From assembly GCA_964344235.1 (NCBI GenBank), contig CAYFMJ010000001.1, positions 128,001 to 192,000 of the forward strand: a stretch of 64,000 bases of DNA, written 5' to 3'. A program made the position numbers and the translations under genes. Shown here piece after piece: positions 10,975-41,661 of the stretch. The notes beneath the pieces are model-generated. The model saw nothing but the letters and a program-made list of their open reading frames with translations, searched no databases and was not told where the DNA came from. The number at the start of each line of letters is the position of its first letter. Positions within the stretch are counted from its first letter, which is position 1. The DNA is from an uncultured Methanosarcinales archaeon. GTDB lineage: Archaea > Nanobdellota > Nanobdellia > Woesearchaeales > GW2011-AR9.

Positions 10975-10985
10975 CGTTAATAACA

Positions 10986-10993
10986 TTTATAAA
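10986..10993 (+). promoter_or_regulatory. TATA box of giant surface protein gene (probably leaderless)
   Basis: AACA-TTTATAAA-C, 28 nt upstream of ATG 11022; same ACATTTATAAAC string at 19680-19691. Confidence 0.6.
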
Positions 10994-11021
10994 CAATGGT
11001 TGTTTGTTTTTGAGTATACTT

Positions 11022-14000: not shown

Positions 14001-15872
14001 ACAACAATTAATTCGTGGAGTGACGATGCTTTAGAACATGTTGGGTATGAAGCGTTAGAAGATGATCCGAAGGAGTTGGAGGGTTTGCATAATTTACAAT
14101 TGAAAACACTGCCTACTAACGAACAAGAGATAATTCCACCTACGGATAGAAATTGGTCGACAACTGCTTTCCCAGGACAGAATATTTTACCAAATGCGTT
14201 GTTTGAAATTGATAGTCAAGGAAGTGTGAAAAGAATTGCCCATTGGGTTGTTATTGATAGTGAAGGGTTAGAAGTTTCGAATGTTAATGCGAAACATATC
14301 CCTTTTGATGATCCAGAGAGGGTAGAGTTGGGAGGTGGAGAGATTCTAAGATCTTCTAGGATAGCACTGCCGCAAGGTGTTGATGAAACAATGGCGTTAT
14401 CGCATGAGGGAGAAGGGGTGAAAGAGAGTGTTATTTTAGTTGATGGTGAAGGGGATATTGATATTGTAAATGATGGAGAGTTCTCTACAGACGGTGCAGG
14501 GTATGTGGTAATTGAATTTACAGGACCTGGAAGTGTGGCACAACCGATCTTACAATTTGTCGATGAAGATTTTGAACCTGTTGCATTCCATTATGATGGG
14601 GAAAAACAAAAAGTGCAAGAAAATTTTCAGGAACGTGCAGGAGTAGCATGTTGCCCACAGGATTGGTGCTGGAATGGGTATACATGTGCAGAGCCGATGA
14701 GTGAAAATACCTTCGCAGCAGAGTTACTGCCAGATAATAGAACGTATAGGTGTGTAGGGGGAGAGTGGACAGAGCTGCCTGTAAAGAGAGATTGGAACGT
14801 GGCAGGATTTGGGTTTTGCGAACAAAAGGATCAGTGTTTCGTGACAAGTTCGTTAATGGGTGGCGATAATACTGCTGAGGCGATTGACTTTTACAATGGG
14901 AATTATCCAACCTGTGTTGACGATGGAGAGTTTATTTTCGACCATTACTGTGATGCCGGTAATTGGACTTCACGAACGAAGTTTATTGCATCGGAGTTAT
15001 TAGATGCGATTGGTGAGACAGATGAATATGCACTGTATTGTGATTCGTTTGAGAAAGTTCTTCCACAATTAGATGGGCATGATTTATTGTTTAGTGGGGA
15101 GTTGGTAGCGGATGCAGAAGTGGTTGGTTCAATTAGTGACCAGTTAGGGGGAGTGGAACCAGAACAGACGTTTATACAGGTGTGCTTTGAGAATGTGAAT
15201 AATAATGAACGAGGTAGAGAGTTAGTACCAACAGACCAGAATAAATGTGTGAATAATGTCTGTGTGTTGCAGTATAAACAGGGTGGAAAGAATAAAGTAG
15301 CGTTTGCAGCGTCTTTGAATCCGGCAGAGAACTCTTTCTTGACAGCGTTTGATATTCCAGCAGGAGAGGTAGCAACGTTATGTGGTGGTGAAGGGTTTAA
15401 TGATTGTAATGTTGACCTAGCAGGGGACTTTTGGTATTCAGAAGAGTTAGATGCGTTTGTGTATGGGAAAGATGGAATAGATTTAGATACAGGGTTCTTT
15501 GGAGGAATTCTGGATTTCTTTAGTGGTTTATTTGGTAATGGTATTGCGGAAGAGAATACGGATTTTATTGCACAAGCGGAGAATTATCGAGATGTATATG
15601 TGTTGCAGCATGAGAATAAATTGGTTCGAGCGATTAAAGAGCAGCAAGGTCAGAAAGAGATTCTAGTAGCGGAGTTTGAAGGGTTTCAATCGCCAGTGTG
15701 TGAGTACGTGGAGAATGTTGGGTTGCCTGAGAAGCCAGCGTTTGAAGGGGCAACGAGCGTGGATTTGGTGTGTAGTAGTGAGGAAGGCGTGCAGAAGTTT
15801 GAATTAGTTGATGATACGGATGTGTTCTGGGATCGGTTTGCGGGAAGGTTGAGGCCGCAAGAGAGTAGTTAG
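11022..15872 (+). CDS. Giant secreted acidic Cys-rich protein (about 1616 aa), unknown function
   Basis: Start moved to ATG 11022 (MVEKKRG + hydrophobic stretch). Many Cys including CC pairs. Motif CINPDAPEVCGDGKNNDCN resembles the PF11617 putative metal-binding repeat. No C-terminal TM anchor seen. Confidence 0.85.
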   Translation: MVEKKRGLVLVVFVAFLVVMSVGVLGVPDKNTDAFPTIGHRADLGYEYDQGCGSYDVDDCPQGDTYKLDEDHSTCSASGSDLSPLFDACKIFFVDKDEGNDDGGFGLADEGYILDSVGYEKLGLHSYEKVCGQEGDHDNDGVEGLKGAKFKAADNTAYICGNNLGEPNKWYKCTSETLDTVTWANGDLYNCTFSASTGFPTWKNEGGDTDFDTFAQEVDCKDNPPSGSCLNLAPEDCASSPENYECPQCINPDAPEVCGDGKNNDCNEATSDNCHDNQAACEALDTAVGWNIHDEKYAWQQTGSEGAGFCCGFSGSGDGNVGEVSESIGGTNKLCVNKEYTTTNGEISSSETEGVECSGSGWCLVSAVVGSKFQIYTIAEPEKEPYDVVSNGDNWYECSSSYHEPLLPEDTGVRTKANAFYCFDEGNHWSWAECPLGEEGEVESENSGTTKIRHKGDGLYQLFPTNDKNQFGVLVDAKDPIYTSLYSEDFLLDFSGYNQLNFMIQFLSEVTLPADVKVQIYGSDDELKWQGNVLGFSTNNPVLVADTFFHVQVPIAPFKDVEKVLIESIGDFNHIEVKNIYMSVQGEQPYLCSAKQSNQPQQPAWLTNADDIIENTLITGENICNELYGGWLGDEVDDVERRCCGDDVGEYYAGPGKNGCWNSEVVVGGGTMMNAQVEVTSQYSTVGEVEGVAVRTVTFEWDYATPSEDPVTLTDAECKQYTKEHNCPIGCKWVADYGVGCIALNADAIIAAPTSGVNTQEASIEIEYDGSTVSPKSITLKELGFEVEGVESGELSINTGIELFIAGSFQDHGDEFEFFSESDYILGNNQFEVGDFKDISFSFVHDDNYYENNKETVKKLVVGTQPEEMMKTYSCSQAACTFPIPGFPPYTISNPFPDLYEIYFVDGPGIDDRHPIDKNGKTFDQVGNVEVTKVAQQVVLVNSDTEHQFYGCAPSQTLINSIPTEDQDSFTALSHCAVKADRFCSFSYTEDGVTTINSWSDDALEHVGYEALEDDPKELEGLHNLQLKTLPTNEQEIIPPTDRNWSTTAFPGQNILPNALFEIDSQGSVKRIAHWVVIDSEGLEVSNVNAKHIPFDDPERVELGGGEILRSSRIALPQGVDETMALSHEGEGVKESVILVDGEGDIDIVNDGEFSTDGAGYVVIEFTGPGSVAQPILQFVDEDFEPVAFHYDGEKQKVQENFQERAGVACCPQDWCWNGYTCAEPMSENTFAAELLPDNRTYRCVGGEWTELPVKRDWNVAGFGFCEQKDQCFVTSSLMGGDNTAEAIDFYNGNYPTCVDDGEFIFDHYCDAGNWTSRTKFIASELLDAIGETDEYALYCDSFEKVLPQLDGHDLLFSGELVADAEVVGSISDQLGGVEPEQTFIQVCFENVNNNERGRELVPTDQNKCVNNVCVLQYKQGGKNKVAFAASLNPAENSFLTAFDIPAGEVATLCGGEGFNDCNVDLAGDFWYSEELDAFVYGKDGIDLDTGFFGGILDFFSGLFGNGIAEENTDFIAQAENYRDVYVLQHENKLVRAIKEQQGQKEILVAEFEGFQSPVCEYVENVGLPEKPAFEGATSVDLVCSSEEGVQKFELVDDTDVFWDRFAGRLRPQESS

Positions 15873-15873
15873 A

Positions 15874-15964
15874 ATATGTCCCGCTTGCACGGCACGATTA
15901 CGGTGACTTCTTGAATCTTTTTTATCTACGCCACCGTGTGCCTCCATTGGCAAAGCGGACATAT
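15874..15964 (-). repeat. Structured intergenic element, copy 1 (91 bp, terminal inverted repeat)
   Basis: Ends ATATGTC(C)CGCTT / AAGCGGACATAT; nested stems; about 80-85% identical by eye to 28471-28617. Confidence 0.85.
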
Positions 15965-16015
15965 CCTATCACGAAAGTAATTAATTTTATAAGATAGAAG
16001 TGATTAGGTGTTTCT

Positions 16016-18583
16016 ATGAAAAGAGGGCAGATAACTGTGTTTATTATAGTTGGTATTATTGTGTTATTTGTCTTTCTGTTGCTGATTCAGTTAAGTAGTT
16101 CATTTGAAAAAGAACAGTTGGAACAGCAGCAAGAGGGGATTCTTACCAAAGCATTCTATAAAGAGGGGTTACGGTTGTTTGTAGAGGATTGCTTAGAAGA
16201 TGAATTATCAAACGGTTTAGTGTTATTGGGCAAGCAAGGAAGATTATGGGATGAAGGTGGTGGAGTATTGGGGTTTGAGAATGGCGTAACAGGTGTGCAA
16301 TTCGGTGAAGATCAAGTGTTTTATGGAATTACACGAGAAGATCATGAGTTACCTGAAGCATATCCTTGTGATGAACATACAGGGGAGGAGCCAGCGTTTT
16401 GTCAATATGGTTATCCCAATATCTCGGTAGGCTTTGGAGAGAAGTCGTTATTTACAACAGAACATTTACAGGAAGATTTAACACGTTATGTTTCCATTAA
16501 GACTGTTGAGTGTGTTGATTCTTTTGTGAAAGAAAATGTTTCGCAAAGCGCAGTATTGGTGACGGAGAAACCAGAGGTAAGCGTTACATTATTGCCACAG
16601 GGAATTCCTGTTCAGGTTGATTATCCAATTCGCTTTTCGGTTGGAGGGGAGGAGTTTTTTTCATTAGCATCGTTTGATTTCTTTTACCCTTCAGAGTTTG
16701 GTAGATTTGTGCAGAAAGCAGCAGTGTTTCCGATGAAGTGGGATCAGCTGTTTGTCGATTTTGATTACAGTGAAGAAGTGTTTATTGATGAGAAATTTAC
16801 GTACGGGTCTGTAAAGGAGATAGGGGAATGTGAGGGGGTAGTGGGTGAGTACTTCTGCGAAAGAGCATTGTCGCCATATACTGGAGGAATTCCTGTGCAA
16901 ATGAAGAAAGATGAGGTTGCGGGTGATACCGTGTTTACGTTTTCGTATCCGTGGAGTAGCGTGATTGCGTCTTCTGTTGATGTTATTGATGTACCACAAG
17001 ATAGCATGTATCGCTTTAGAATTGCACGGCAAAACAGGCCGCCAGCATTGGAGTATGAAGAGAGGTTAAGTTGTATTAGTGAAGAGTATGATTATTTAGT
17101 AATTAAAGGAAGTCAGAATTATGATGAAGTAGAGATTAGTTTAGATGCAATGGACCCAGATGAAGATGAAGAGTTAGTGTATAGTTTTGAATCTTCATTG
17201 AGTGGTGTTGTGGAAGGAAATACGTTTACTGTTTCTGGCGAGGCTTTGCCCGATGAAACAGGAGTGTATGATGTTGTAGGAAGTGTTGAGGACGAACATG
17301 GTTTGGTGGATTCGCAGAGAATTAGAGTGTTGGTGGATAGAGATGTGGGGGCAGAGTTGTCACTACACATGCCGTATGATTTAGGAGAAAGAGGCTTGTA
17401 TGAAGAGATTTATAGTCCTGAAAATGGATATATTGTGTCGGTGGAAGATCCGATATTTTTTGACGTGCAAATGCCGTTGAAGAGTGCAGGAGCGACGTTT
17501 GAAGAGACGACATTGACGTACACAGGGGATGAAGAATTTGTATTTACGCTGTCTGAGTTAAGTGACTTTGGTGGAGGTGGGTGTTTCAGTTTTCCTGGGT
17601 TTTTGCTTGGAAAATGTGGTGATGAGGAAGGTTTAGGATTTTATGGCGAGTATGTTGTAAGTGATGCTGGCACGGTTGATGATACTTCAAAAATATGGAA
17701 TTGGAAAACGTGGTTGAATGACCCTAGCAATGTGAAACCGAAAACAATGCCAACAAACTTCTTTAAAGAGGTTAAGGGGGGGGAAGATTTAATCTTAGAT
17801 GTTGATGTGAGTTATTGTAGTGAAGAGTTGGATATCCCTGAAATAACGATTCCCCTGAATGTGGTTGAATGTTTACCACATAAGAATGCAGATCATCCAT
17901 TTCCGTACCCATACCATACTGTTAAAGTTGATCCAGAAACGGGTGAGAGAAGTGAAGAGGAGATTAATCCATTTTTAGCAGAGCATGCCTGTTGTGGGAA
18001 TTTCGAGTATAAGAAACCAGAGGAAGTTTGTTATGAAAGTCTGCCAGAGCAAGGCTGTTTTGGTTTAGCATCTGATGATTTGGTATTATTATCGGATGGA
18101 AATACTGATTTAGAAGATCTTGCAGGGTATATTGTGGAAGAGAGAGTAGAGAAAGCATATTGTACCGGAGACCGAGGGAATGTATGTGGTGAAGGAAACT
18201 TTGAGAGTGTTATTGTCGATGGGGGAAAATGTGGAAATAGAGAAGCGTATGGGGGCACGTGTAATAAGGTGCATGGTTATTGTGAGGACCTGGACCCGTG
18301 GAGTATTAATGAGGAGGAGAAAGCATGGTGTAATGGGCCAGTTGGTTGTGGGACAACAACGAGTGTTTGTACAACGTCTATTGTGTATACTGGCTCTGTG
18401 CCAAATGTTTTTGCGGGTGGCAACGTTGAAAATACTATTCAAGCAAATAATCAAGATTTTCAATGTGGTGGATGCACGTTTGAAGGCCAACAATGTTTCT
18501 TGTTGTTCAGTGGAGTGCCTGCAACGTGTAATAAACTTGGAGCGGGCGTGTTTGAATGTGGTGGCGGAGGTAAAGGGGGATGA
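16016..18583 (+). CDS. Large class III signal-peptide (pilin-like N-terminus) protein, 855 aa, Cys-rich C-terminal part
   Basis: MKRG|QITVFIIVGIIVLFVFLLLI; acidic extracellular body; Ig-like segment (NRPPALE...LDAMDPDEDEELVYSF). Confidence 0.8.
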   Translation: MKRGQITVFIIVGIIVLFVFLLLIQLSSSFEKEQLEQQQEGILTKAFYKEGLRLFVEDCLEDELSNGLVLLGKQGRLWDEGGGVLGFENGVTGVQFGEDQVFYGITREDHELPEAYPCDEHTGEEPAFCQYGYPNISVGFGEKSLFTTEHLQEDLTRYVSIKTVECVDSFVKENVSQSAVLVTEKPEVSVTLLPQGIPVQVDYPIRFSVGGEEFFSLASFDFFYPSEFGRFVQKAAVFPMKWDQLFVDFDYSEEVFIDEKFTYGSVKEIGECEGVVGEYFCERALSPYTGGIPVQMKKDEVAGDTVFTFSYPWSSVIASSVDVIDVPQDSMYRFRIARQNRPPALEYEERLSCISEEYDYLVIKGSQNYDEVEISLDAMDPDEDEELVYSFESSLSGVVEGNTFTVSGEALPDETGVYDVVGSVEDEHGLVDSQRIRVLVDRDVGAELSLHMPYDLGERGLYEEIYSPENGYIVSVEDPIFFDVQMPLKSAGATFEETTLTYTGDEEFVFTLSELSDFGGGGCFSFPGFLLGKCGDEEGLGFYGEYVVSDAGTVDDTSKIWNWKTWLNDPSNVKPKTMPTNFFKEVKGGEDLILDVDVSYCSEELDIPEITIPLNVVECLPHKNADHPFPYPYHTVKVDPETGERSEEEINPFLAEHACCGNFEYKKPEEVCYESLPEQGCFGLASDDLVLLSDGNTDLEDLAGYIVEERVEKAYCTGDRGNVCGEGNFESVIVDGGKCGNREAYGGTCNKVHGYCEDLDPWSINEEEKAWCNGPVGCGTTTSVCTTSIVYTGSVPNVFAGGNVENTIQANNQDFQCGGCTFEGQQCFLLFSGVPATCNKLGAGVFECGGGGKGG

Positions 18584-19650
18584 GAGCAGCCCTTATTCTC
18601 TTTTTGGTTTTTCTTTTCGTTCCTTTTGTGCTAGCAGATTCGGGGTGTTTTGTGTTTCAGGATAGTGCACTGTATTGTGTTGAAGTTTCAGAGGAAGAAG
18701 CGGAGCAGGAATGTGGCTTCTTTGATAATTGTGATATTGTGGAGGTATTTTTAGAAGGAAGTAGTTGTGATAAGCATAGTGTGCCGGAATGTGAAACAGT
18801 GCTGTGTAAAAGTACTTGTTCGGAAGAGTTTTTAGGCACGTGTCTGGGTGGGAGAGTTCCAATCGGAGAAGAAGGGCAGTGGTGTTCACCTGGTTGTTGT
18901 TCTTTCGAGGATAATTGTGGGTTTGAGCAGAGTGGGTGGTTATGTAATGTGAACGCACAGAATAAGGGTGTTACTGAGTTTTCCTATAGTACTTTGTTGG
19001 GGGAAGCAGGTTGTCAATCGTTATGCCAACAGGATGATGTGACGAAGAATAGTTTATTGGGGCCAGTGAAGTTTAAAACGGAATCAATTAAGCCACTTGT
19101 TCCGCCGCCTGTAGCGGTTGCTGTGGGTGAAGGAAGTAGTGATGCTGGGGAGGATATTAATACTGGTTCTTCGTTGCTTGGTTCAGTGCTGTTTTGGGTT
19201 TTGCTATTGTTGATTGGGTTGTTTGTAGCGTATTATTTTCACTCAAAGCGGTTTGTGAATTGGAAAGATCTCTTTGATTGGATTTTAGGGAAGGGGCAGG
19301 AAGAGCGAGAGGTTGTTGTGAAGGAAAAGGGTAAAGATGTGCCTGTGCGGGTTTCCGTACCGGAACATTCAGAGCGTGTTAAACGATTGCATGCGAAAAG
19401 AAAACATAAAGTTCACAAGCAGGAACGGGAAGAGTTTTTAGCAGAACATGGGCTAAGTGTTGGAGATGAATCCGTACAAAAATTACAACGATTTGTAGAG
19501 AAACATGTTGCTAGTAGGCCATTATTTCATAATTTGGATCATTTAGTTGAAAAACGGCAGGAACATCTCGCAAAAACTGTGAAAAAGCCGGTGCGTAAGG
19601 CAAGGAAAAAAGATATTTTTGAAGAGTTGCGGAAGATGGCAAGAAAATAG
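18580..19650 (+). CDS. Membrane-anchored Cys-rich surface protein, short paralog of the 2061-aa protein
   Basis: Signal peptide ending VLA|DS, Cys-rich domain with CSPGCC, TM helix (VLFWVLLLLIGLFVAYYF), basic cytoplasmic tail. Confidence 0.8.
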   Translation: MRAALILFLVFLFVPFVLADSGCFVFQDSALYCVEVSEEEAEQECGFFDNCDIVEVFLEGSSCDKHSVPECETVLCKSTCSEEFLGTCLGGRVPIGEEGQWCSPGCCSFEDNCGFEQSGWLCNVNAQNKGVTEFSYSTLLGEAGCQSLCQQDDVTKNSLLGPVKFKTESIKPLVPPPVAVAVGEGSSDAGEDINTGSSLLGSVLFWVLLLLIGLFVAYYFHSKRFVNWKDLFDWILGKGQEEREVVVKEKGKDVPVRVSVPEHSERVKRLHAKRKHKVHKQEREEFLAEHGLSVGDESVQKLQRFVEKHVASRPLFHNLDHLVEKRQEHLAKTVKKPVRKARKKDIFEELRKMARK

Positions 19651-19682
19651 TGCGTTTCTTCCACGGTAGGCAGCTACAAACA

Positions 19683-19690
19683 TTTATAAA
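19683..19690 (+). promoter_or_regulatory. TATA box of 2061-aa surface protein gene
   Basis: AAACA-TTTATAAA-C, 27 nt upstream of ATG 19718. Confidence 0.6.
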
Positions 19691-19717
19691 CGGCAACTGT
19701 TTCTTGTAGACGTAGAT

Positions 19718-22700
19718 ATGATGTGTAAAAAAAGGGGTTTCATATTAGTAGTTTTAGCTTTGTTTTTAGTAGTTCTTTCTAGTTTCGTTTTTGCAGAATC
19801 TTCAGGATGCTATGTTTATGCTTCGGGAAGTTCTGATTTATATTGTGTAGAGAATGTGTTAGAAAGTGCAGCAACAGCTGATTGTAATCTATTTGGGGAT
19901 TGTGATATTAATGAAGCGTTCTTGGAGAATACAGCGTGTTCTTCCGTAGCAGCGTGTGAGGTTGTAACGTGTAATGTTGATTGTCAGGATAGGACGTTAG
20001 GGAAATGCCAGGAATTGGGAGAAGAATTATACGGGGTTCCAGGAGAAGCGGTACCGTTTGAGGAGTATGATGCAATCTGTAGCCCCGGATGTTGTGTTTT
20101 AACATCTCCAGGCGGTGATCAGACGTGCCAACCGAATTTACCGTTACAATGTGATGATTTGGCAACAAAAAAGGGGTTTGATATGAGTTTCCTGCCAGGG
20201 GTTGTAGGTGCTTCCTGTATTAACAGTTGTGGAGCAGATGTGGAGAAAGGAAATTTAGTGGTTACAGTTGTTAATGATGAGGGTGATGGTGTTGTGGCGA
20301 GTGTTTCGCTGGTTGGTTTTACTGAAATTGCAGAATCAAAAGGAAACGGCGTATATGAATTTAGTGAATTAACTCCATCAACGTATGTAGTGAAAGTTTC
20401 AGCTGCAGGATTTGGTAGTGAAAGTGTCTCTGTGATTGTGGAGGGGGAGGTTACGGAAGTTAGTGTGGTGTTAAGTCCAGTTGAGGGTGTTGGTTCTATT
20501 TCTGGAGTTGTGAATGGAGAAGGAGAGCCGTTGAGTGGGGCAACGGTCTTTGTGCAGGGAGGAGGAATTGAGGAAATTGCAACGACTTTAGGAAATGGTG
20601 CGTTTAGTTTTGATAACTTGGAAGCAGGAAGTTATGTGGTGACGGCAAGTAAAGTTGGTTATAAGAGTTTGTCACAGCCAGTGTTGCTGCAGGAAGGTGC
20701 TGAGAAAGTATTAACGTTTGATTTAGAGGAAACGTCATTAGAAGGAGTTACCGTTACAGCGTTTGTAGAAGGGAATGCACAACCTGGGGTTTCAGTGTTT
20801 GTGGATGGGAAGTTTAAAGGGAAAACAAAATTTCAAACGGATGGTAGTTTATTCATTCCGTTTTTGGAAGAGGGAGAGCATACGTTCTTTGCAACATTTC
20901 AAGGAGTGTATGAATCTGGGGAAGAAGTGTTTGAAGTGGAAGGTGGAGAGGAGCAAGAATTTGAGCTATTTCTGAAGAAAACGTTTGGTGAATGTAGTTT
21001 TGGACAGCCAAATGACCATAAAAATGTTGAAGTGTTTGCGTTGGAACATGTGTTGGGGAAGGAACAAGTAGGGTTGGTGTGGGAGACACCGTGTCCAGAA
21101 GTGGTAAGTTATTTGGTTGAGAAACAGGAAGTTGGTAGTGAAGCGGTTGAACAGATGTCGTTTTCTATTGGCCAGACAGAGTATATTGATGCAGATGTGG
21201 AATGGGGAACATCATATGTGTACAGAATAAAAGCGTATTATGTTGACGGCTCTTCTCCGCGTTATTCAGAGCAGTGGAATGAACAGACCATTGTGATGGG
21301 AAGTGCGGAGTGTGAGAATGGGTTCTTTGAGACAGGTGCAGGGCATTCGTTTTGTCAAGCCGGTAGTGAGAATAAGAAGACGGTTTTTACGTGTAGTGCG
21401 GAGAATCAAGTTATTCCGCAGCAGCAATGTGCAGATGCTCCGGGAGAGTTGTTTTATTGCAGTCCAATTATAGAGTTCACAGCGGGTTGTAAGAGCGATA
21501 GTGCATGTTCCTTAGCAGGAACACCGTTTGGGTTGTTTAGCACAGAAGAAAGTTGTTATGGAGTAGAGGCGAGTGCGGCAGTTAGCGGAGGGGCAGCGAA
21601 TTATTGTTATTACGATGCAGCTGCGGTTGAGGTTAGTACTGTTGTTAACCAGTGTGTAAGTTGTGCAAATGTGGAAAGCTGTTTCGATTATCAAAGCGAA
21701 GATGCGTGTGGCGTTAACTCCTGCTTAAGTGAAGTGTGTAAGTGGGTTGAGGGAGCGTCTTCTCCAGAGTTAGTTGATTACAGTTTATTTTATTCCAGTT
21801 ATAATGAGGAATCGCTGTTTGTTGGAGAGGAAACGGGGGCGGGTTATTGTGTGCCGGAGGAGAAATATGAAGAAACAGATGCCTGTGGTTTATGTAGCGC
21901 AGGTTCAACGTTATTTGAAAATTATTACTGTACTGCTGATGTCTGTTCCAATTTAGGGGCGTGTTATTCTGAGAATAGTTTGAGTGAGTGTAATGAGTGT
22001 CAGGAAGTTCCAACAGGAAGTGTTAGTTGTGAGACCTACGTAACGGAGCAGGAATGTAACGGTGTAGGTGGCAGTAGTAAGGATGCATATGAACGAATCA
22101 CGCGATCTGCAGATAGTTGCAGTTGGGGTGCATGTGTCTGGGAAGGATTAGAGAATGGAGCAGGGCAATGTGTGAAAGATGGTGACGCTGATGGGGCAAA
22201 TGATTGTTTAACAATCCCGCAAGGGGGAAATGCGGCAGCTTGTAGAGCTGACGTAACACCACCAAGTACTTCACTGAGTGCAGCGGAAACGGCAATTGTT
22301 TCAATTGGAAAACCAGAGTTAACGTTTGTGGGAGATGACTCTTCAGAGAAGTTGTTACAGCAAAATCAATTAGGGGAGTTGTGGTATTGTGTTACGCCGC
22401 TGGGAGTGGACACCTGTACCAGTGAGCATTTTGAAGTTGTTCCGTATTCTGGTAATTTAATTACAGAAGAGTTGGTAATTGATGTTACTGATTCAGATTT
22501 CTTTGCAGATGGTGTTGCGGGTGAGACATATTTACTAAAGTTCTTTTCGAAAGATATTTACTCAAACCAGGAAGATGTACAGGAAGTGTATATTTACGCA
22601 GATTTAGTGTTACCGTCGTTTACGATTGGTGATGAAATTACAATAAATGGTGATGTGGCAGATCTAACGGTGTTCTTAGAGGATCTGAATGAACCAGTAA

Positions 22701-25700
22701 GTTGTACATTTACATTGGAGCCGATTATTGGGTTTGAAAGTGTGAAGACGGTTACAGTTCCACGAGATGCACAGGTGAAGTCAGCGACGTTTACTGGTTT
22801 ACAGGGAGTAAGTTATGACTTAAGCGTTGAATGTGAAGATGATTTTGCAAATGTTCATAGTGAAAGTAAGAAGTATGTGTTTAATTATGATCAATCCATT
22901 TCTTTAATTAATCCGCCGTTCTTAGGAGCGATTGCCCAGAATGCTGTGCAGTTTGAAGTGTCTACCGTCGTTGCGTCACAATGTGAGTTGTATGAAACCG
23001 CAACCAATACGTTGTTGGGCGTATTTGCAACGAATGAAGAAGGGAAAAGTCATTTAACAGAACCAGTTGGTGGATTATTTGAGGGAGAGTATGCAGCGGA
23101 ACATAAAGTTCGATGTGTTGAGGATTTATCGGGAAAGGAAGCGGAAGCGTATTTCCATTTCTTTGTTGATTTTACACCCCCACAAACATTGATTACCTTA
23201 CAGGAAGGAAGTCATGTTGCTTCTCCTACAGAGTATGGGTGGGAGGTGTCGTTTATTGACAGTGCTGATGTGAGCTTTGTGTGTGATGCCGGAAATGGTG
23301 GATTTGCCTGTGATGAGACGCTGTATTGTTTGGGAGAAGGATGCGAATTAGCATCTAGCCCAGGGTATGTTACCTATGAAGCGCCGTTTACTGTTACTGA
23401 GACAACGGAAATTTGTTATTACTCAACTGATATTGGCAATACACCATTTCCGTTTGTGACTTGTGGAGATATTTTAGTTGAGGGAGCTGGTGTGACGTTA
23501 GAGAAACCAACGCCATACATGTTTGTTGGAGAAGTATGGGGTGTGAGTAATGAACCGGTGTTTGAGTGGCAATTCTTTACCAAAGTGCCAACACAGGAAT
23601 GTGCGTTTGACTTTACTGAGAATATTGATGTTGAAACGATTGAACCGTTTAAGAAATTGCAAAATGTTGGGGGGAAATATCTGTTTGAAGGATTCCCTGG
23701 CGAGGTGATTAGTGCGTATGGAAGTGCTGGTGGCGTGAAGACGTTATATGTGCAGTGTGCGAATGCGTTTGAATTAGTAGGAAGTCCACAGAAGATGCAT
23801 TTGGAATATGATCCTACAGCGCCTTCGATTTTGAGTGTGGGGGCGGAGCCAAATCCTGTGCTTGAGGGAATTACAGTATTGTTAAGTGTGGAAACGGATG
23901 ATAAGTCAGTGTGTAAGTACAGCGACGTTTCTAACGGTGGTGGTAGCAAGGAATATCAAACCATGGAATTTTCATTTCCGGGAGAGGAAGAAGGAGTGAT
24001 GTATATTGGTCATGAAGATATTTTCTGGTTAAGTGTAACCCAGCCACAGCAGGAATTTACGATTGCAGTGCAATGTATGAACGGGGCGGGAGATTTATCA
24101 GAGGTTGAGGAGATAGGGTTCTTTGTGGATTATACTGCTTTGGGAAGTATCTTGTCGTTGTTACCTGATGGATATACAGCTGCGACGAATGTTACGCTGC
24201 AAGCAGAGACGAGTAAAACAGGTTGGTGTGAATATAAAGTTGATGAAGAGTATATTGTGTTTGCTGAAACAACTGGAAAGACACACTCTCAACCAATTGG
24301 CGCTGCTGATGAAGGGGAGTATATTTTCCCGGTACAATGTACAATGGGTGACCATACAGTGCCTGGCGTGATTGATTTTGTGGTTGATAGAACCGCTCCA
24401 GTGATCTCGGAAGTGGAGGATTATACATATAGTTGTGGTGCTGATGAGTTAAGTGTGATGGTGTATTCCGATGAAGAAAATATTAGTCAGTACTTCTATG
24501 ATGTGTTTGAGAAAGGAAGCAAGTTTGTAGGAACAAATGGCTCTTCCGTGGCAAGTGGTTCGTTGTTAAGTGATACAGTAAGTGGAGAGCTACCATTAAA
24601 GATTCCAACTGATGATTTAGAAGAGAATAAAAGTTATTTTGTGAAAGTGGGTGCGATTGACGCGGCGGGGAACTTAGGTAAAGTAGTGCAGAGTGATGGG
24701 GTTACTATAACGGATGCAGATCATGCTGGTTGTGAGGAAGATGGTGGTTTAGGGGTTACGTTTGAAAGTTTAACGAATGCATCGTGTACATCGCAGAGTA
24801 TCGCATTAAAATGTAGTGATAGTGCCGGATGTGGTGTGATTGAGTATGGCACGAGTGGAGACTCGGCTTCTTGTGTTGCTGAGAAAGCATATACTGGGCA
24901 GAATATTCAATTTGAAGAGGCAGGCTGGTTATGTTATTATGTAGAAAGTTACTCTGGAGAGAATGCTAGTGGTAGTACGTTAGTACAGTTTGACGATGAG
25001 GATGGTGACGGGATCCACGATAGTTGTGACTTGTGTGAAAACACAGATTCGGGAAAAGTTGTTGGGAGTAATGGTTGTGCTGATGGGCAACTTCCTCCAG
25101 ATAAGCAGAAAGAGGACAAAGATAAAGATGGTTTACCTGATGCATGGGAGAAATTATATGATGCAAATGGTTGTGAGTTGTCTCTATTGAGTGCAGATTC
25201 TGACGATGATGGTATTTCGGATGCAGATGAAGATTATGATCAAGACGGTTACAGTAATTTCCAGGAATATCAAGTTGGTTCCGATCCATGTAATGATGAT
25301 TCGTATGATTTAAGTGACTCTCAATTCCCGAGCGGCGATAGTGGCACGGGGGGAGTTGGTAAGAGTGGTGGTGCTGACGTCGTAGCGTGGGTGTTCTTGA
25401 TTGTTGGATTATTGTTAGTGCTAGGTGGTGTTGGCTACTTAGTATATTACTACAAGTACGCTCCTTCAAGGGGAAAAAGAGGTGTACCTGTGAGGCCGAG
25501 AGTAGGTGTTGCACGTCCTGTTGTAATGCAGAAGAAAAAGAGTGTCTTTGACACATTGTTTTCTGGGTTGCAGCGGAAGAAACGTGATGTGACAAAAGAT
25601 CGGTCTCGCAGGTCTGTTTTCTCCGAGTTCAGTTCGGATTCAGCGAGGATTCCACATGTTGATGCGGCATTACGGGGAGAAAGGAGTCATGAGCGATTAC

Positions 25701-25903
25701 ATAGTTTAGCGAAGAAGTATGTTAAGCATAAAGAAGATATTAAACCAGGATTACGAGCGGGTGAGAAGAGTGTGTTTGCGCGGTTAGATAGTATTGCGAA
25801 GCAATCGTCGCCGAAGGATGTGAAGAAGGTTGTAAGTAAAAAGGAAGCGAACGATATTTTTAGCAAGCTAGAAAAGATAAGTAGGAAGAGGAAGAAGAAA
25901 TGA
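19718..25903 (+). CDS. Giant modular cell-surface protein (2061 aa): Cys-rich, carboxypeptidase-regulatory/PEGA-like, FN3-like and Ig-like modules, TSP3-like Ca-binding repeats, TM anchor, basic tail
   Basis: Signal peptide ending VFA|ES; GEPLSGATV...GAFSFDNLEAGSYVVTASKVGY; Y.YRIKAYY; DEDGDGIHDSCDLC, DKDKDGLPDAWE, DYDQDGYSNFQEY; TM AWVFLIVGLLLVLGGVGYLVYYY. Confidence 0.85.
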   Translation: MMCKKRGFILVVLALFLVVLSSFVFAESSGCYVYASGSSDLYCVENVLESAATADCNLFGDCDINEAFLENTACSSVAACEVVTCNVDCQDRTLGKCQELGEELYGVPGEAVPFEEYDAICSPGCCVLTSPGGDQTCQPNLPLQCDDLATKKGFDMSFLPGVVGASCINSCGADVEKGNLVVTVVNDEGDGVVASVSLVGFTEIAESKGNGVYEFSELTPSTYVVKVSAAGFGSESVSVIVEGEVTEVSVVLSPVEGVGSISGVVNGEGEPLSGATVFVQGGGIEEIATTLGNGAFSFDNLEAGSYVVTASKVGYKSLSQPVLLQEGAEKVLTFDLEETSLEGVTVTAFVEGNAQPGVSVFVDGKFKGKTKFQTDGSLFIPFLEEGEHTFFATFQGVYESGEEVFEVEGGEEQEFELFLKKTFGECSFGQPNDHKNVEVFALEHVLGKEQVGLVWETPCPEVVSYLVEKQEVGSEAVEQMSFSIGQTEYIDADVEWGTSYVYRIKAYYVDGSSPRYSEQWNEQTIVMGSAECENGFFETGAGHSFCQAGSENKKTVFTCSAENQVIPQQQCADAPGELFYCSPIIEFTAGCKSDSACSLAGTPFGLFSTEESCYGVEASAAVSGGAANYCYYDAAAVEVSTVVNQCVSCANVESCFDYQSEDACGVNSCLSEVCKWVEGASSPELVDYSLFYSSYNEESLFVGEETGAGYCVPEEKYEETDACGLCSAGSTLFENYYCTADVCSNLGACYSENSLSECNECQEVPTGSVSCETYVTEQECNGVGGSSKDAYERITRSADSCSWGACVWEGLENGAGQCVKDGDADGANDCLTIPQGGNAAACRADVTPPSTSLSAAETAIVSIGKPELTFVGDDSSEKLLQQNQLGELWYCVTPLGVDTCTSEHFEVVPYSGNLITEELVIDVTDSDFFADGVAGETYLLKFFSKDIYSNQEDVQEVYIYADLVLPSFTIGDEITINGDVADLTVFLEDLNEPVSCTFTLEPIIGFESVKTVTVPRDAQVKSATFTGLQGVSYDLSVECEDDFANVHSESKKYVFNYDQSISLINPPFLGAIAQNAVQFEVSTVVASQCELYETATNTLLGVFATNEEGKSHLTEPVGGLFEGEYAAEHKVRCVEDLSGKEAEAYFHFFVDFTPPQTLITLQEGSHVASPTEYGWEVSFIDSADVSFVCDAGNGGFACDETLYCLGEGCELASSPGYVTYEAPFTVTETTEICYYSTDIGNTPFPFVTCGDILVEGAGVTLEKPTPYMFVGEVWGVSNEPVFEWQFFTKVPTQECAFDFTENIDVETIEPFKKLQNVGGKYLFEGFPGEVISAYGSAGGVKTLYVQCANAFELVGSPQKMHLEYDPTAPSILSVGAEPNPVLEGITVLLSVETDDKSVCKYSDVSNGGGSKEYQTMEFSFPGEEEGVMYIGHEDIFWLSVTQPQQEFTIAVQCMNGAGDLSEVEEIGFFVDYTALGSILSLLPDGYTAATNVTLQAETSKTGWCEYKVDEEYIVFAETTGKTHSQPIGAADEGEYIFPVQCTMGDHTVPGVIDFVVDRTAPVISEVEDYTYSCGADELSVMVYSDEENISQYFYDVFEKGSKFVGTNGSSVASGSLLSDTVSGELPLKIPTDDLEENKSYFVKVGAIDAAGNLGKVVQSDGVTITDADHAGCEEDGGLGVTFESLTNASCTSQSIALKCSDSAGCGVIEYGTSGDSASCVAEKAYTGQNIQFEEAGWLCYYVESYSGENASGSTLVQFDDEDGDGIHDSCDLCENTDSGKVVGSNGCADGQLPPDKQKEDKDKDGLPDAWEKLYDANGCELSLLSADSDDDGISDADEDYDQDGYSNFQEYQVGSDPCNDDSYDLSDSQFPSGDSGTGGVGKSGGADVVAWVFLIVGLLLVLGGVGYLVYYYKYAPSRGKRGVPVRPRVGVARPVVMQKKKSVFDTLFSGLQRKKRDVTKDRSRRSVFSEFSSDSARIPHVDAALRGERSHERLHSLAKKYVKHKEDIKPGLRAGEKSVFARLDSIAKQSSPKDVKKVVSKKEANDIFSKLEKISRKRKKK

Positions 25904-26409
25904 ACACCCGAGGAATGGCGATCGGCCAGGTGTTTATTTTTATCGTTGCTGCAATTACGTTTGCACTGATTATGATTTTTGGTGGAAAAGCAATTGTTGA
26001 TTTTATCGGTCAGGGGGAACAGGTAGAGTTTGTACAATTTAAGACAGATGTAGAAACCTCGGTGCAACAAATTTATACTGAGTTTGGCGCGATTCGAGAG
26101 AAAGAGTTTAGTTTGCCGCCTTCGTATGAGCAAGTGTGTTTTGTTGATTTAGATTATGAAAATGAAGAGAGTGTTGTGTTGTTACGTGGGAAAGATCCGG
26201 TAGCGGCGGATGCATGGCAAACGGCAATGGAAGAGGGGGGGTATGGCGGTTTTGATGTGAATGTGTTTTTAACGCCGACAGCTCCCAATCCAATAAAAGT
26301 TCATCCGATCAAGATGGATAATGGTTTTTTATGTGTTGATGTCGTGCAGGGGGAATTTACAATTCTGCTTGAAGGAAAAGGAGACCATACGTTTCTGTAT
26401 ACAAAATGA
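25900..26409 (+). CDS. Pilin-like class III signal-peptide protein
   Basis: MNTRG|MAIGQVFIFIVAAITFALIMIFG; ATGA overlap with upstream gene. Confidence 0.75.
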   Translation: MNTRGMAIGQVFIFIVAAITFALIMIFGGKAIVDFIGQGEQVEFVQFKTDVETSVQQIYTEFGAIREKEFSLPPSYEQVCFVDLDYENEESVVLLRGKDPVAADAWQTAMEEGGYGGFDVNVFLTPTAPNPIKVHPIKMDNGFLCVDVVQGEFTILLEGKGDHTFLYTK

Positions 26410-27479
26410 ATAGGAATGGGCAAGTAGCGATTACATTTAATTGGGTGTATGTGTTGATAGCGGGAGCGGTCATTCTGATGTTTTTTGTTGGGATTGTGGT
26501 GAAGCAGAAAGCTGTTTCAGAGGAGAGGTTGAATACGGAAGTGTTGCAAGTGTTGGATTCAATTTTTACTGCAGCAAGTGTGTCTGATAAAACGCGGAAT
26601 TTTGTGAAAATTGGTGGTCTGGGGAAAGAAGAGGTGTTTTTTCGCTGTAGCGATGGAGTGACAGAGTTTGGTGTTACGGGGAAGAGTTTTACGAAGGAGA
26701 ATGCGATAGATCCGATTTTTGCACCTAGCTCGGTTAAGGCACCGCGGTTAATTTTGTGGAGTTTACCATATAATATGCCATTTAAAGTGGTTGATTTTTT
26801 GTTGGTAACGTCTTCGAATACAAAGTACGTCGTGTATGGAAAAGGGCCGTTTGTGTCAGAGTTTATTACGGCCACTGATGATAATGATGAGTTGTTGCAG
26901 ATTGATGCCAGCGTTGTTGATGGAATAGATAGTGTGGATCCAGGAAAAGCGTTTGCAGTTCGGATAGTTGATACGGATGGTGTTGGTTTGAAAGAGATGC
27001 CTTTGGAGTTAGCGGATTTTGACGATAGTAAAGTGACGGGTGTTTCTTTTGTTTCCGGTGGAGTACAGTATTACAAGAAGCAAGGGAGTGGCTGGGTGAA
27101 GAAGGGAAAAGTGTTGCCGATCGTTGCGATGGATGAAGAGAGGCAGGCAGCGAAGTATGCAGCTATTTTTGCAGCAGGACCAGAGGAGTATTGGTGTGGT
27201 ATGCAGAAGGCGTTTGAACGATTAGAATTATTGGATGAAGTGTATACAGGAAAAGTTGGGGAGATGGTTTTAGCTGAAGAGAGTGGTGTGTGTGCGACGT
27301 TATTAGCGCCAGGCGATAGTATTGGAGAAGCGATGGAGAGTCATAGTATTGGCGTGAAGCAATGTTTAGCGTCGCTTGACGTGCAACCGGAAGTGTGCAG
27401 TGATTTGATGGCACATGCTTCTGCTGTTTCCTTTGCCAATGAAGAGTTATCGGTAAATAGTTGTATTACGTTATATTAA
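26406..27479 (+). CDS. Pilin-like class III signal-peptide protein (357 aa)
   Basis: MNRNG|QVAITFNWVYVLIAGAVILMFFV; C-terminal Cys cluster. Confidence 0.75.
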   Translation: MNRNGQVAITFNWVYVLIAGAVILMFFVGIVVKQKAVSEERLNTEVLQVLDSIFTAASVSDKTRNFVKIGGLGKEEVFFRCSDGVTEFGVTGKSFTKENAIDPIFAPSSVKAPRLILWSLPYNMPFKVVDFLLVTSSNTKYVVYGKGPFVSEFITATDDNDELLQIDASVVDGIDSVDPGKAFAVRIVDTDGVGLKEMPLELADFDDSKVTGVSFVSGGVQYYKKQGSGWVKKGKVLPIVAMDEERQAAKYAAIFAAGPEEYWCGMQKAFERLELLDEVYTGKVGEMVLAEESGVCATLLAPGDSIGEAMESHSIGVKQCLASLDVQPEVCSDLMAHASAVSFANEELSVNSCITLY

Positions 27480-27480
27480 G

Positions 27481-27978
27481 ATGAAAAAAGGCCAAGTTCA
27501 TATGTCGGAGACGATTGCAGTACTGTTTATTTTCTTTGTTCTAGTGCTGTTTGGGTTGGTGTTTTATTTTAAGTATACAAGCATCGCAGTACAAGAGCAG
27601 GAAGAAGAGTTGTTTGCAAAAAGAGCGATTGATGTTACGACTAAGACCATCTTTTTACCTGAGTTATTGTGTACGAAAGGAGTGTATGAATCAGAAGATT
27701 TCTGTATCGATATGATGAAGTTACGTTCGGCAGATGAGGTGTTTGAACAGCATATGGCTGATTATTATTTTGAAATGTTTGGCTATGCGAACATTACTGT
27801 TGCAGAACTGTATCCGGCAGTTGGGGAGACGGATTGGGTGTTATATGAACGGATGAAGCCGAATTTTACACGTAGAGATAGAACGTTCTTTGTCGTTGCG
27901 TTAAAAGATCAGACAGAAGGTGTAGGAATAAACCCGTCATATGGGTTTGGCTATGTGACTGTTGAGGTGTTTTCATGA
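27481..27978 (+). CDS. Pilin-like class III signal-peptide protein
   Basis: MKKG|QVHMSETIAVLFIFFVLVLFGLVF. Confidence 0.78.
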   Translation: MKKGQVHMSETIAVLFIFFVLVLFGLVFYFKYTSIAVQEQEEELFAKRAIDVTTKTIFLPELLCTKGVYESEDFCIDMMKLRSADEVFEQHMADYYFEMFGYANITVAELYPAVGETDWVLYERMKPNFTRRDRTFFVVALKDQTEGVGINPSYGFGYVTVEVFS

Positions 27979-28466
27979 AGAAAGGTCAGATGGAGATGAT
28001 TGGACTTGTTATTATTGTGATACTTATTACATTAGGTATGTTATTTATGGCGTTATTTGCGTTGAATGATGATCCAGAGAAGAAAGTGTTTACCAGAAAG
28101 GAATTAGCGTCAAGCACGATGGCTGCCCTTATGAAGACGACGGCTTTTTGTAACGGTGGGTTACCGGAATTTGAGAAGGATTTGTTAGAGGATTGTGCCG
28201 GAACGAATACAGTGTATACGTGTGAGGGAATGGATAGTTGTGATTTTTTAGATATGAAGATTTCTGAATTGTTGGATGAAACGGTGGGGGCATGGGGGAA
28301 GACGTATGAATTTGAATCGGTGTCGGTTTCTAATGGTGAAGCGTTATTGCATATTTGGGATGAAGAAAGAGGGGATTGTCAGCGGCAGGAGAGGGATACG
28401 TCCGGGGAGTTTTATTTGCCTGCGAAGAGTGGTTTGGTGAGAAGTGTGTTGTATATTTGTGAATAA
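27975..28466 (+). CDS. Pilin-like class III signal-peptide protein
   Basis: MKKG|QMEMIGLVIIVILITLGMLF; several Cys. Confidence 0.78.
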   Translation: MKKGQMEMIGLVIIVILITLGMLFMALFALNDDPEKKVFTRKELASSTMAALMKTTAFCNGGLPEFEKDLLEDCAGTNTVYTCEGMDSCDFLDMKISELLDETVGAWGKTYEFESVSVSNGEALLHIWDEERGDCQRQERDTSGEFYLPAKSGLVRSVLYICE

Positions 28467-28470
28467 ATGT

Positions 28471-28617
28471 AATATGTCAGCTTGCACGACACTATTACGG
28501 CAACTTCCTGAATCTTTTTTCTTCTACATCACCGTCTATCAGAAATTTTCAATTTCTGGGACATTCCAAAAATCTTTGATTTTTGTTATGTGCCTCCTTT
28601 AGTAAAGCAGACATATT
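28471..28617 (-). repeat. Structured intergenic element, copy 2 (91-bp core plus 54-bp double-hairpin insertion)
   Basis: Ends GTAATATGTC / GACATATTAC; core aligns to 15874-15964; insert 28536-28589 holds the stems CAGAAATT/AATTTCTG and CAAAAATC/GATTTTTG. Confidence 0.85.
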
Positions 28618-28684
28618 ACTTCTGAGCGGAGGAAAGGTTTATATATGGTTTTTCTCTTCTGTAAGTATCATATAAGAGGTGACG

Positions 28685-29038
28685 ATGATGGTTTTCAATA
28701 AAAAAGGGCAGGGCTTATCCTTAAATGTAATTATTGTTGCTGCGTTAGCATTAATTGTTCTTGTTGTGTTAGTTGCAGTGTTTGCTGGAGAGGTAGGAGA
28801 TAAGACTGATAAGATCAATAAAGCGAGTCAAGCGGAATTGGTTAAGTTACAAATAACATACGGGCAGTGTCAACCAGCGACTTCTGATCAAAATACGTTC
28901 TTAGAAGCATACAGTGTTGCTGAATCTGATGGAGATAAGGATGTTGCAGTTGCAGATTTTGAAAAGAAAATTAGCGATTGTAAAGCATTAAGCGATGACA
29001 AAGCGACATGTGATACTGCTGGGTGTAAGTGGAAGTAA
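28685..29038 (+). CDS. Pilin (candidate major pilin)
   Basis: MMVFNKKG|QGLSLNVIIVAALALIVLVVLVAVF; own TATA (TTTATATA about 28638) and GAGGTGA SD; four Cys. Confidence 0.8.
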   Translation: MMVFNKKGQGLSLNVIIVAALALIVLVVLVAVFAGEVGDKTDKINKASQAELVKLQITYGQCQPATSDQNTFLEAYSVAESDGDKDVAVADFEKKISDCKALSDDKATCDTAGCKWK

Positions 29039-41540: not shown

Positions 41541-41661
41541 CCAAAACATTTATAATAAGTTTTTTCTTTTTTGTGAGTACGTGAAACATACAATACAACG
41601 AGTTGTCTTATTCTATGATTATTAGAAATAGTAGTGTTGTGGAATTTGGAGGAAATATTAA

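Follow-up and report, generated by a model that had tools for sequence, protein, structure and literature searches.

The window analysed here is a 64,000-nucleotide stretch of contig CAYFMJ010000001.1 (GenBank assembly GCA_964344235.1, positions 128,001 to 192,000 of the forward strand), and it contains two copies of a hairpin element, each lying just past a stop codon and followed by a TATA-like box. The question raised by this locus is whether such hairpins are RNA genes, regulatory sites or mobile DNA. The original prediction, made from the nucleotide sequence, considered an antisense RNA family selected for its minus-strand structure, a non-autonomous single-stranded DNA element of the HUH/REP kind, and an element resembling a miniature inverted-repeat transposable element (MITE). 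Our analysis favoured the last of these candidates, on the basis of 8–9-bp target-site duplications, an empty site, interchangeable terminal repeats and, for one type of shell (the ends enclosing the hairpin core), a matching IS6-family element. The window elements are probably copies of a MITE family of Woesearchaeota-type DPANN archaea. This MITE family is previously undescribed, and it appears to be neither a new class of RNA nor of the HUH/REP type.

Two hairpins in the window and their relatives

Reading of the sequence, a repeat finder and folding all placed the two copies where they had been predicted, and the repeat finder grouped 15883–15923 with 28480–28520 (family D9, 88% identity). 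The terminal inverted repeats (ATATGTC/GACATAT), the nested GGCAC/GTGCC stems and the 8-bp inner stem described for them are all present. Copy 1 (15874–15964, minus strand) is a complete 91-bp hairpin element, with an asymmetric core that reads 5' to 3' on the minus strand, and it begins 1 nt past the TAG stop codon (15870–15872) of an open reading frame (ORF) of 1639 residues. Its left outer arm, ATATGTCCCGCTT (15874–15886), corresponds to the inner portion of the terminal inverted repeat of the family, found in full in relatives as GTAAGTRATATGTCTGC, and pairs with the right outer arm, AAAGCGGACATAT (15952–15964). The conserved core between the arms (15887–15951, minus strand) has the organization GC-CAAUGGA-GGCAC, an 8-bp inner stem with a 22-nt A-rich loop, an AAUC bulge and GUGCC-GU-GC. 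Copy 1 is followed after 20 nt by a TATA-like box, TTTTATAAG (15985–15993, plus strand), and a further 22 nt separate this box from the ATG at 16016.

Copy 2 (minus strand) is degenerate and carries an internal insert. It extends from 28469 to 28619 if the extended inverted repeat GTAATATGTC/GACATATTAC is included and forms a 145-bp hairpin (28472–28616) without it, starting a few nucleotides after a TAA stop codon (28464–28466). The core stems of this copy contain four G-U pairs and one A-C pair, the pattern AGAAGTAATATGTCTGC matches it with 2 mismatches in a pattern scan, and copy 2 is visibly decaying. Its 54-bp insert (28536–28589) consists, as had been noticed, of two perfect 8-bp AT-rich mini-hairpins placed exactly at the junction of the inner and middle stems. 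We rejected this insert as a repeat in its own right, since contig 3 provided its sole other occurrence in the genome, a partial match of 25 nt. Unrelated MITEs of another genus (genome G001; L169–L171) contain mini-hairpins with the structure CAAAAATC-loop-GATTTTTG, a similar one being present in the copy 2 insert, and these AT-rich mini-hairpins may constitute a separate tiny palindromic module. A second TATA-like box, TTTATATAT (28638–28646, plus strand), is located about 20 nt past the end of copy 2 and precedes a pilin-like ORF starting at 28685. The placement of the copies between stop codons and TATA-like boxes was therefore described correctly, and both boxes belong to the flanking DNA, outside the element.

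Following a similarity search, we built a covariance model (R1) from the copies on the minus strand. This model found eight copies in the genome holding the window (G000; 1.19 Mb, 96% complete), with E-values of 1e-14 to 1e-23, so the resemblance between them is not due to chance. Two of these copies lie in the window, a third 272 nt past its end and the other five elsewhere; copy 1 was the top match (95.7 bits), and copy 2 scored 64.2 bits. The search across relatives that the original prediction had called for thus recovered a family: the element was detected in 11 of the 37 genomes from the same taxonomic family (1–8 copies each) and in none of 24 searched genomes from outside that family but within its order. 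Further copies, detected by pattern scanning and confirmed with the model, came from metagenome-assembled genomes (MAGs) labelled Woesearchaeota, Nanoarchaeota and Nanoarchaeia. Most matches of a loose pattern scan of genome contigs were chance bacterial ones, and 13 matches (11 loci) passed the covariance model. Four contigs carrying the element (L054, L098, L113 and L126) belong to MAGs labelled "uncultured Methanosarcinales archaeon", and these could be mis-binned DPANN contigs or could reflect transfer between episymbiont and host lineages. The proposed absence of a relative in Rfam was also upheld, with no match in the window at the gathering threshold and none for seven copies at E-values of up to 10.

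Members of the family measured 102–258 bp when delimited by target-site duplications, the smallest hairpin extent being 75 nt. They have no ORF of their own, and the sole reading frame running through one of them is that of a host agmatinase gene. Copy positions were not syntenic across genomes, and among about 55 copies neighbouring genes were almost never common to different genomes. In tandem gene contexts, 18 copies were antisense and nine sense, and 18 copies occupied divergent intergenic regions versus two in convergent ones.

This distribution bears on the idea that the hairpins were recruited by the host as 3'-end structures, terminators or insulators between a stop codon and the next promoter, as REP/BIME or ERIC sequences are in bacterial operons. 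The copies in tandem contexts do abut the upstream stop codon (1–4 nt in the window) and precede the next start by 40–110 nt, divergent regions hold more copies than convergent ones, and T-runs of at least five residues accompany about half of the copies. However, these T-runs are not strand-specific (22 copies had them on both strands, five on one strand only and two on the other only), so they do not make a directional terminator, and both orientations of the element occur. The same positions would also be expected from purifying selection acting on random insertions in a compact genome, the absence of the element from 26 of the 37 family genomes indicates that it is not a general requirement, and the conserved asymmetric loops would be left unexplained. 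We therefore regard host recruitment as improbable.

Mobility, interchangeable ends and candidate transposases

Target-site duplications were sought at all boundaries lying no more than 45 nt from the core and having a terminal inverted repeat of at least 8/10, with the reversed right flank as a control. Direct repeats of 8–9 bp abutting the terminal repeats were perfect in nine of 58 copies and matched at 7/8 in six more (15 of 58 in total), the best value in any copy for the reversed-flank control being 6/8. Two near-identical copies from genome G010 were bounded by different perfect duplications, TGAGAAAG and GCCTAATC. The empty sites that the original prediction had proposed to look for were also found. 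In genome G033, an agmatinase gene (PF00491, arginase family) carries the element in frame as an insert of 22–23 residues, and exactly this insert is missing from the orthologues in G013, G000, G010 and G017. A syntenic cluster of three genes, with differing junctions, has the element after gene 3 in G000 and between genes 1 and 2 in G018, the junction between genes 1 and 2 in G000 comprising only 12 nt. The family is therefore mobile DNA and probably not a fixed RNA gene. For the window copies themselves, a DNA sequencing run (word share 0.07) gave five small pieces, none of which overlapped either copy.

A further observation concerns one orthologous intergenic site in G033 (L042) and in the Woesearchaeota MAG BS150m-G64 (L075), whose neighbouring proteins are 89% identical. 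The site is occupied in both and the outer inverted repeats are similar, but the core lies in opposite orientations and the inner stem is different. Such a pattern suggests that the site was used more than once, or that the element was inverted or replaced in situ.

The duplications are difficult to reconcile with a single-strand DNA element of the REP/RAYT or IS200/IS605 (HUH, Y1) kind, in which one strand would fold for cleavage and transfer; to our knowledge, HUH transposition makes no target-site duplications. Such an element would account for the entire unit being a hairpin, for the slight excess of G-U pairs on one strand (see below) and for the common orientation of all five copies on contig 1. 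However, orientation is mixed in other genomes, and the search for a cognate TnpA/RAYT suggested by the original prediction gave no Y1_Tnp (PF01797) gene in the 96%-complete G000, the same search being positive in six control genomes. The HUH/REP-like candidate has accordingly been abandoned as very improbable.

The ends and the core behaved as separable modules. The terminal repeat of the window type, GTAAGTAATATGTC, is found in full in G012 and G018, with remnants in the window (ATATGTC or GTAATATGTC), and terminal inverted repeats of the form GTAAGTRATATGTC.../...GACATATTACTTAC are present in G012, G018 and G001. In G001, the window-type repeat bounds elements of 150–200 bp with an unrelated interior and perfect 8-bp duplications (ATGATAAG and CTAAAACT). 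Conversely, the core occurs within shells with other ends (GTACGTATTTAGT; GGTAATGTCAAGTTAAC or GGTGCAGTCAAGTTAG; TGGTCTGTCCA; GGCTTCATCCGGAAT), each with its own perfect duplication, so that one core is common to at least five shells with differing terminal repeats.

A composite was observed at L054:5959–6141, where the apical loop of a more diverged core houses another core in inverted orientation; GGCTTCATCCGGAAT inverted repeats enclose this composite, together with a perfect 9-bp duplication, TTTTTCTAC. This nested arrangement recurs in L018, L019, L045 and L113, across several genera, and one G018 copy has an insert of about 155 nt at the apex. The apex is thus a recurrent landing place, since nested cores are found in several genomes and the G018 copy has its insert at the same position. 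The core could plausibly gain new ends through nested insertion.

The IS6 family is characterized by GG tips, 8-bp target repeats and the DDE_Tnp_IS240 domain, and includes two MITE derivatives in ISfinder (PMC7986276); in a MITE census, a Woesearchaea genome reached 105 cMITEs/Mb (PMC11602168). In the order studied here, homologues of an IS6-family transposase with an N-terminal CxxC zinc finger followed by PF13610 (DDE_Tnp_IS240) were identified in 17 of 201 genomes. The G033 gene for such a transposase is preceded by GGTAATGTCAAGTTAA, which is identical to a MITE end in L123 and differs by one base from the end in L069. The right end of this IS6 copy was looked for and not found. Genome G204 contains an intact IS6-family element with ends GGCAAAGTCAACT... 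and a 9-bp duplication (CTTTTTCAG), and the MITE shells of the GG..GTCAAGTTA type match the ends of the IS6-family elements in L179 and L195. The L123, L069 and L014 shells start with GG and have 9-bp duplications, and the window-type shell starts with GT and has duplications of 8–9 bp.

Other candidates for a driver were examined and set aside. The rve-type (IS481/IS3-like) transposase on contig 58 of G012 has unrelated ends. Solo matches to GTAAGTAATATGTC near contig ends did not represent an autonomous element, being flanked by ordinary genes (such as those for a rhodanese, a metallophosphatase and a B3/4-domain protein). At L177:2706–2891 (G001, contig 38), an ORF of 61 residues, encoding a zinc ribbon that contains two CxxC pairs, runs outward across a solo GTAAGTAATATGTC end. 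It weakly resembles the zinc finger of the G033 IS6-family protein, and this ORF, not itself a transposase, may be a transposase remnant. Separately, in all three IS6-family elements (L179:1375–1431, L193:54–96 and the L195 leader), the stretch that separates the left end from the start codon of the transposase contains a hairpin with a 3' bulge, having the sequence AGGAAAAGC or AGTAAAGC in L179 and L195. The architecture of this hairpin resembles that of the MITE core, but the covariance model found no similarity in the IS6-family leaders.

Taken together, the element is a non-coding palindrome of 75–260 bp in which the terminal repeats form an outer stem when one strand folds. Inside these repeats it contains a conserved, asymmetric core of about 60 nt and, at the apex, a fast-changing, nearly always paired stem-loop that accepts insertions. 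A DDE transposase would act on the terminal repeats to move the copies in trans, duplicating 8–9 bp of the target. For the GG..GTCAAGTTA shells, the likely driver is the IS6-family transposase (zinc finger plus DDE_Tnp_IS240) of the same order, and the window-type GTAAGTAATATGTC shell presumably uses the same kind of enzyme. Insertions would survive at sites where they do little harm: between a stop codon and the promoter that follows, in divergent intergenic regions or, in rare cases, within a gene and in frame. The core would be retained because propagation of the element or the host needs it.

The conserved core and the strand question

The minus-strand consensus reads, in order, outer stem, GC, CAAUGGA, GGCAC, A, inner stem with an A-rich loop, U, AAUC, GUGCC, GU, GC and outer stem. 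Among 43 distinct copies, the core loops and the middle stem were 80–100% conserved, whereas conservation of the inner stem and its loop was 30–50%. The stems covary: GGCGC/GCGCC, GCCAC/GUGGC and GGCCC/GGGCC replace GGCAC/GUGCC in the middle stem, and the inner stem exists in many unrelated, yet paired, versions. Known structured motifs were compared with this fold and dropped, there being no tandem G-A pairs (K-turn), no ACA box (H/ACA) and no 3-4-3 bulges (bulge-helix-bulge). Integron attC sites are defined by R''/R' boxes (RYYYAAC/GTTRRRY) and are found in arrays of co-oriented cassettes, with one site after every cassette. This possibility was also rejected, the stem bases lacking AAC/GTT boxes and the two window copies being 12.6 kb apart, with genes of 1639 and 2061 residues between.

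Three explanations of the core and its stems appear possible: the core may be a subterminal binding site needed for propagation, it may be a functional RNA or single-strand motif, or the perfect stems may be regenerated by template switching within the hairpin. The second of these can be developed further, by supposing that the core is a functional module carried by the MITE and corresponding either to a small structured RNA of the minus strand or to a protein-binding site in DNA or RNA. A transcript might then start from the adjacent TATA box working bidirectionally, and the fold would be kept by selection at the RNA or single-strand level. It is in keeping with such a role that CAAUGGA, GU, AAUC and the middle stem are so strongly conserved in copies from 11 genera, that the same core is present in shells with different terminal repeats, and that inner stems are nearly always perfectly paired despite their differing sequences. 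In addition, the model strand is slightly A-rich (1205 A vs 1034 T), and in copies A, B, D, E and F of G000 a distance of 17–26 nt separates the 5' end of the hairpin, on the minus strand, from a TATA-like box. However, these boxes lie in flanking DNA and could equally be the promoters of the next gene. The element is found in both orientations with respect to genes (18:9), with one copy inside a coding sequence, and the core runs in opposite directions at one orthologous site in two close relatives. Furthermore, it has no relative in Rfam, and the decay of copy 2 indicates that at least this locus is not under selection.

The strand from which selection would be read was the central claim of the original prediction. 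Its report that the minus strand folds well was correct, but the plus strand also folds well, since z-scores against dinucleotide shuffles on the two strands were −3.6/−4.3 for copy 1 and −4.2/−4.3 for copy 2. The substitutions giving G-U pairs on the minus strand and A-C mismatches on the plus strand were confirmed, the two window copies and five other G000 copies together yielding six G-U pairs on the minus strand versus one on the plus strand. In a model-fitted alignment of 55 distinct copies, the G-U to A-C ratio was 25:5, but 21 of the 25 G-U pairs fell among the two outermost and the four innermost pairs, for which the aligner is free to select partners, and at rigidly placed pairs the ratio was 4:5. 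Outer arms of fixed length gave 25:19, 39:26 and 28:32, which represents no asymmetry. A ratio of 53:19 for the outer arms was discarded as biased, because these arms had been delimited by folding of the model strand. An alignment of the inner arms treating all mismatches alike nevertheless retained a 9:2 excess of G-U pairs, to which copy 2 adds three. A mild one-strand excess of G-U pairs therefore survives in the inner stem only, as modest evidence from copies that are not independent of each other, and selection for the minus-strand structure is weakly supported overall. For these reasons we consider it unlikely, although less so than host recruitment, that the MITE carries a functional module. 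The same estimate applies to its fullest form, in which the core of about 60 nt (GCC-AAUGGA-GGCAC ... AAUC-GUGCC-GU-GC) would have been captured by several unrelated transposon shells and spread through Woesearchaeota with its pairing selected on one strand; this too we hold to be doubtful.

Besides this residual excess, several observations weigh against assigning the family to MITEs moved by a DDE transposase. Conservation is reversed with respect to a typical MITE, the internal core being fixed and the ends differing between shells. Only the ends are required by a DDE mechanism, whether of the cut-and-paste or the replicative type, so a near-invariant, asymmetric and unpaired core remains odd. 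Nor does such a mechanism demand paired inner stems, which contained 459 Watson-Crick cells versus 19 mismatches even though their sequences differ between copies. No match to PF13610, PF00665 or PF01797 (IS6-type, rve and HUH transposases) was found in G000, and no autonomous element with GTAAGTAATATGTC ends was detected in 41 family genomes, either as an inverted pair 0.7–3 kb apart or at contig ends. The window copies have no recognisable target-site duplication (none of at least 7/8 at any plausible boundary for copy 1), and duplications are missing from all eight G000 copies. Replicative transposition of the IS6 type and recombination between copies can also erase duplications. With neither the relevant transposases in G000 nor duplications around its copies, the window copies of this MITE family look like stranded relics.

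Related elements and neighbouring sequence

The closest counterparts of the family are IS6-family MITEs, which are likewise small and non-coding, with terminal inverted repeats, 8–9-bp duplications, many copies and a patchy distribution. With an IS6-family element of the same order, one shell type shares the GG tip, the GTCAA(G/C)TTA ends and the length of the duplication. Unlike IS6-family MITEs, the family described here has an internal asymmetric hairpin core as its best conserved part, housed in at least five shell types. Archaeal MITEs such as SM1–SM4 of Sulfolobus and the small mobile repeats of Haloquadratum and Halobacterium are also non-autonomous, and no sequence relation to them was seen, none having been searched for. 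They are mobilised in trans by the transposases of resident insertion sequences and, as far as is known, have as their hallmark the ends that they have in common with a resident insertion sequence rather than a structured core that is conserved.

The Correia/NEMIS elements of Neisseria and the ERIC/IRU elements of enterobacteria are about 100–150 bp long and reside in transcribed intergenic DNA in either orientation, with insertions at fixed points. Like them, the present elements fold end to end, are found in either orientation and have longer forms with internal insertions; however, they belong to another domain of life and share no sequence relation, and Correia elements insert at TA whereas 8–9-bp duplications are made here. 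The in-frame insert in the G033 agmatinase recalls the Rickettsia palindromic elements (RPE), in which a palindrome is tolerated within a gene, but this is a single in-gene case among 58 copies, the rest being intergenic, and the two are not related in sequence. REP/REPIN sequences, which go with RAYT (HUH) transposases, resemble the family: they are short intergenic hairpin repeats, they have a conserved motif and they often occur in clusters or nested arrangements. They differ from it in that duplications are present here, that no RAYT/Y1 gene was found in G000, and that the element is three to five times the length of a REP.

These findings imply that small non-coding transposons persist and turn over even in the tiny, streamlined genomes of DPANN archaea, where they land beside promoters, past stop codons and even within an enzyme gene. 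In annotation, such hairpins should be masked as repeats and not recorded as new RNA genes, as their covariation-like patterns can mislead the discovery of RNA motifs. The zinc-finger IS6-family transposase linked to one shell type provides a testable driver. If the conservation of the core reflects a function, the family would be a rare case in archaea of a structured module disseminated by a MITE, and a functional core would define a structured RNA or aptamer-like family that is borne by transposons and specific to DPANN archaea.

The two copies are embedded in a long run of co-oriented plus-strand genes (10000–36000 of the window), with a GC skew of about +0.4 and ORFs of 1639, 855 and 2061 residues. 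The 1639- and 855-residue ORFs and two small neighbouring ORFs were scanned and had no Pfam match. Several smaller ORFs have N-termini resembling the signal peptides of archaeal type IV pilins (class III), for example MKRGQITVFIIVGIIVLF at 16016 and MVFNKKGQGLSLNVIIVAALAL at 28688. The motif AACATTTATAAAC is repeated ahead of genes at 10982–11013, 19679–19710 and 41545–41576 (repeat-finder family D2), and looks like a shared promoter consensus comprising a B recognition element (BRE) and a TATA box. Outside the window, at about 1.3 kb from copy B, contig 1 also contains a tRNA gene (L002:122–240) whose anticodon loop is followed by an intron of 48 nt.

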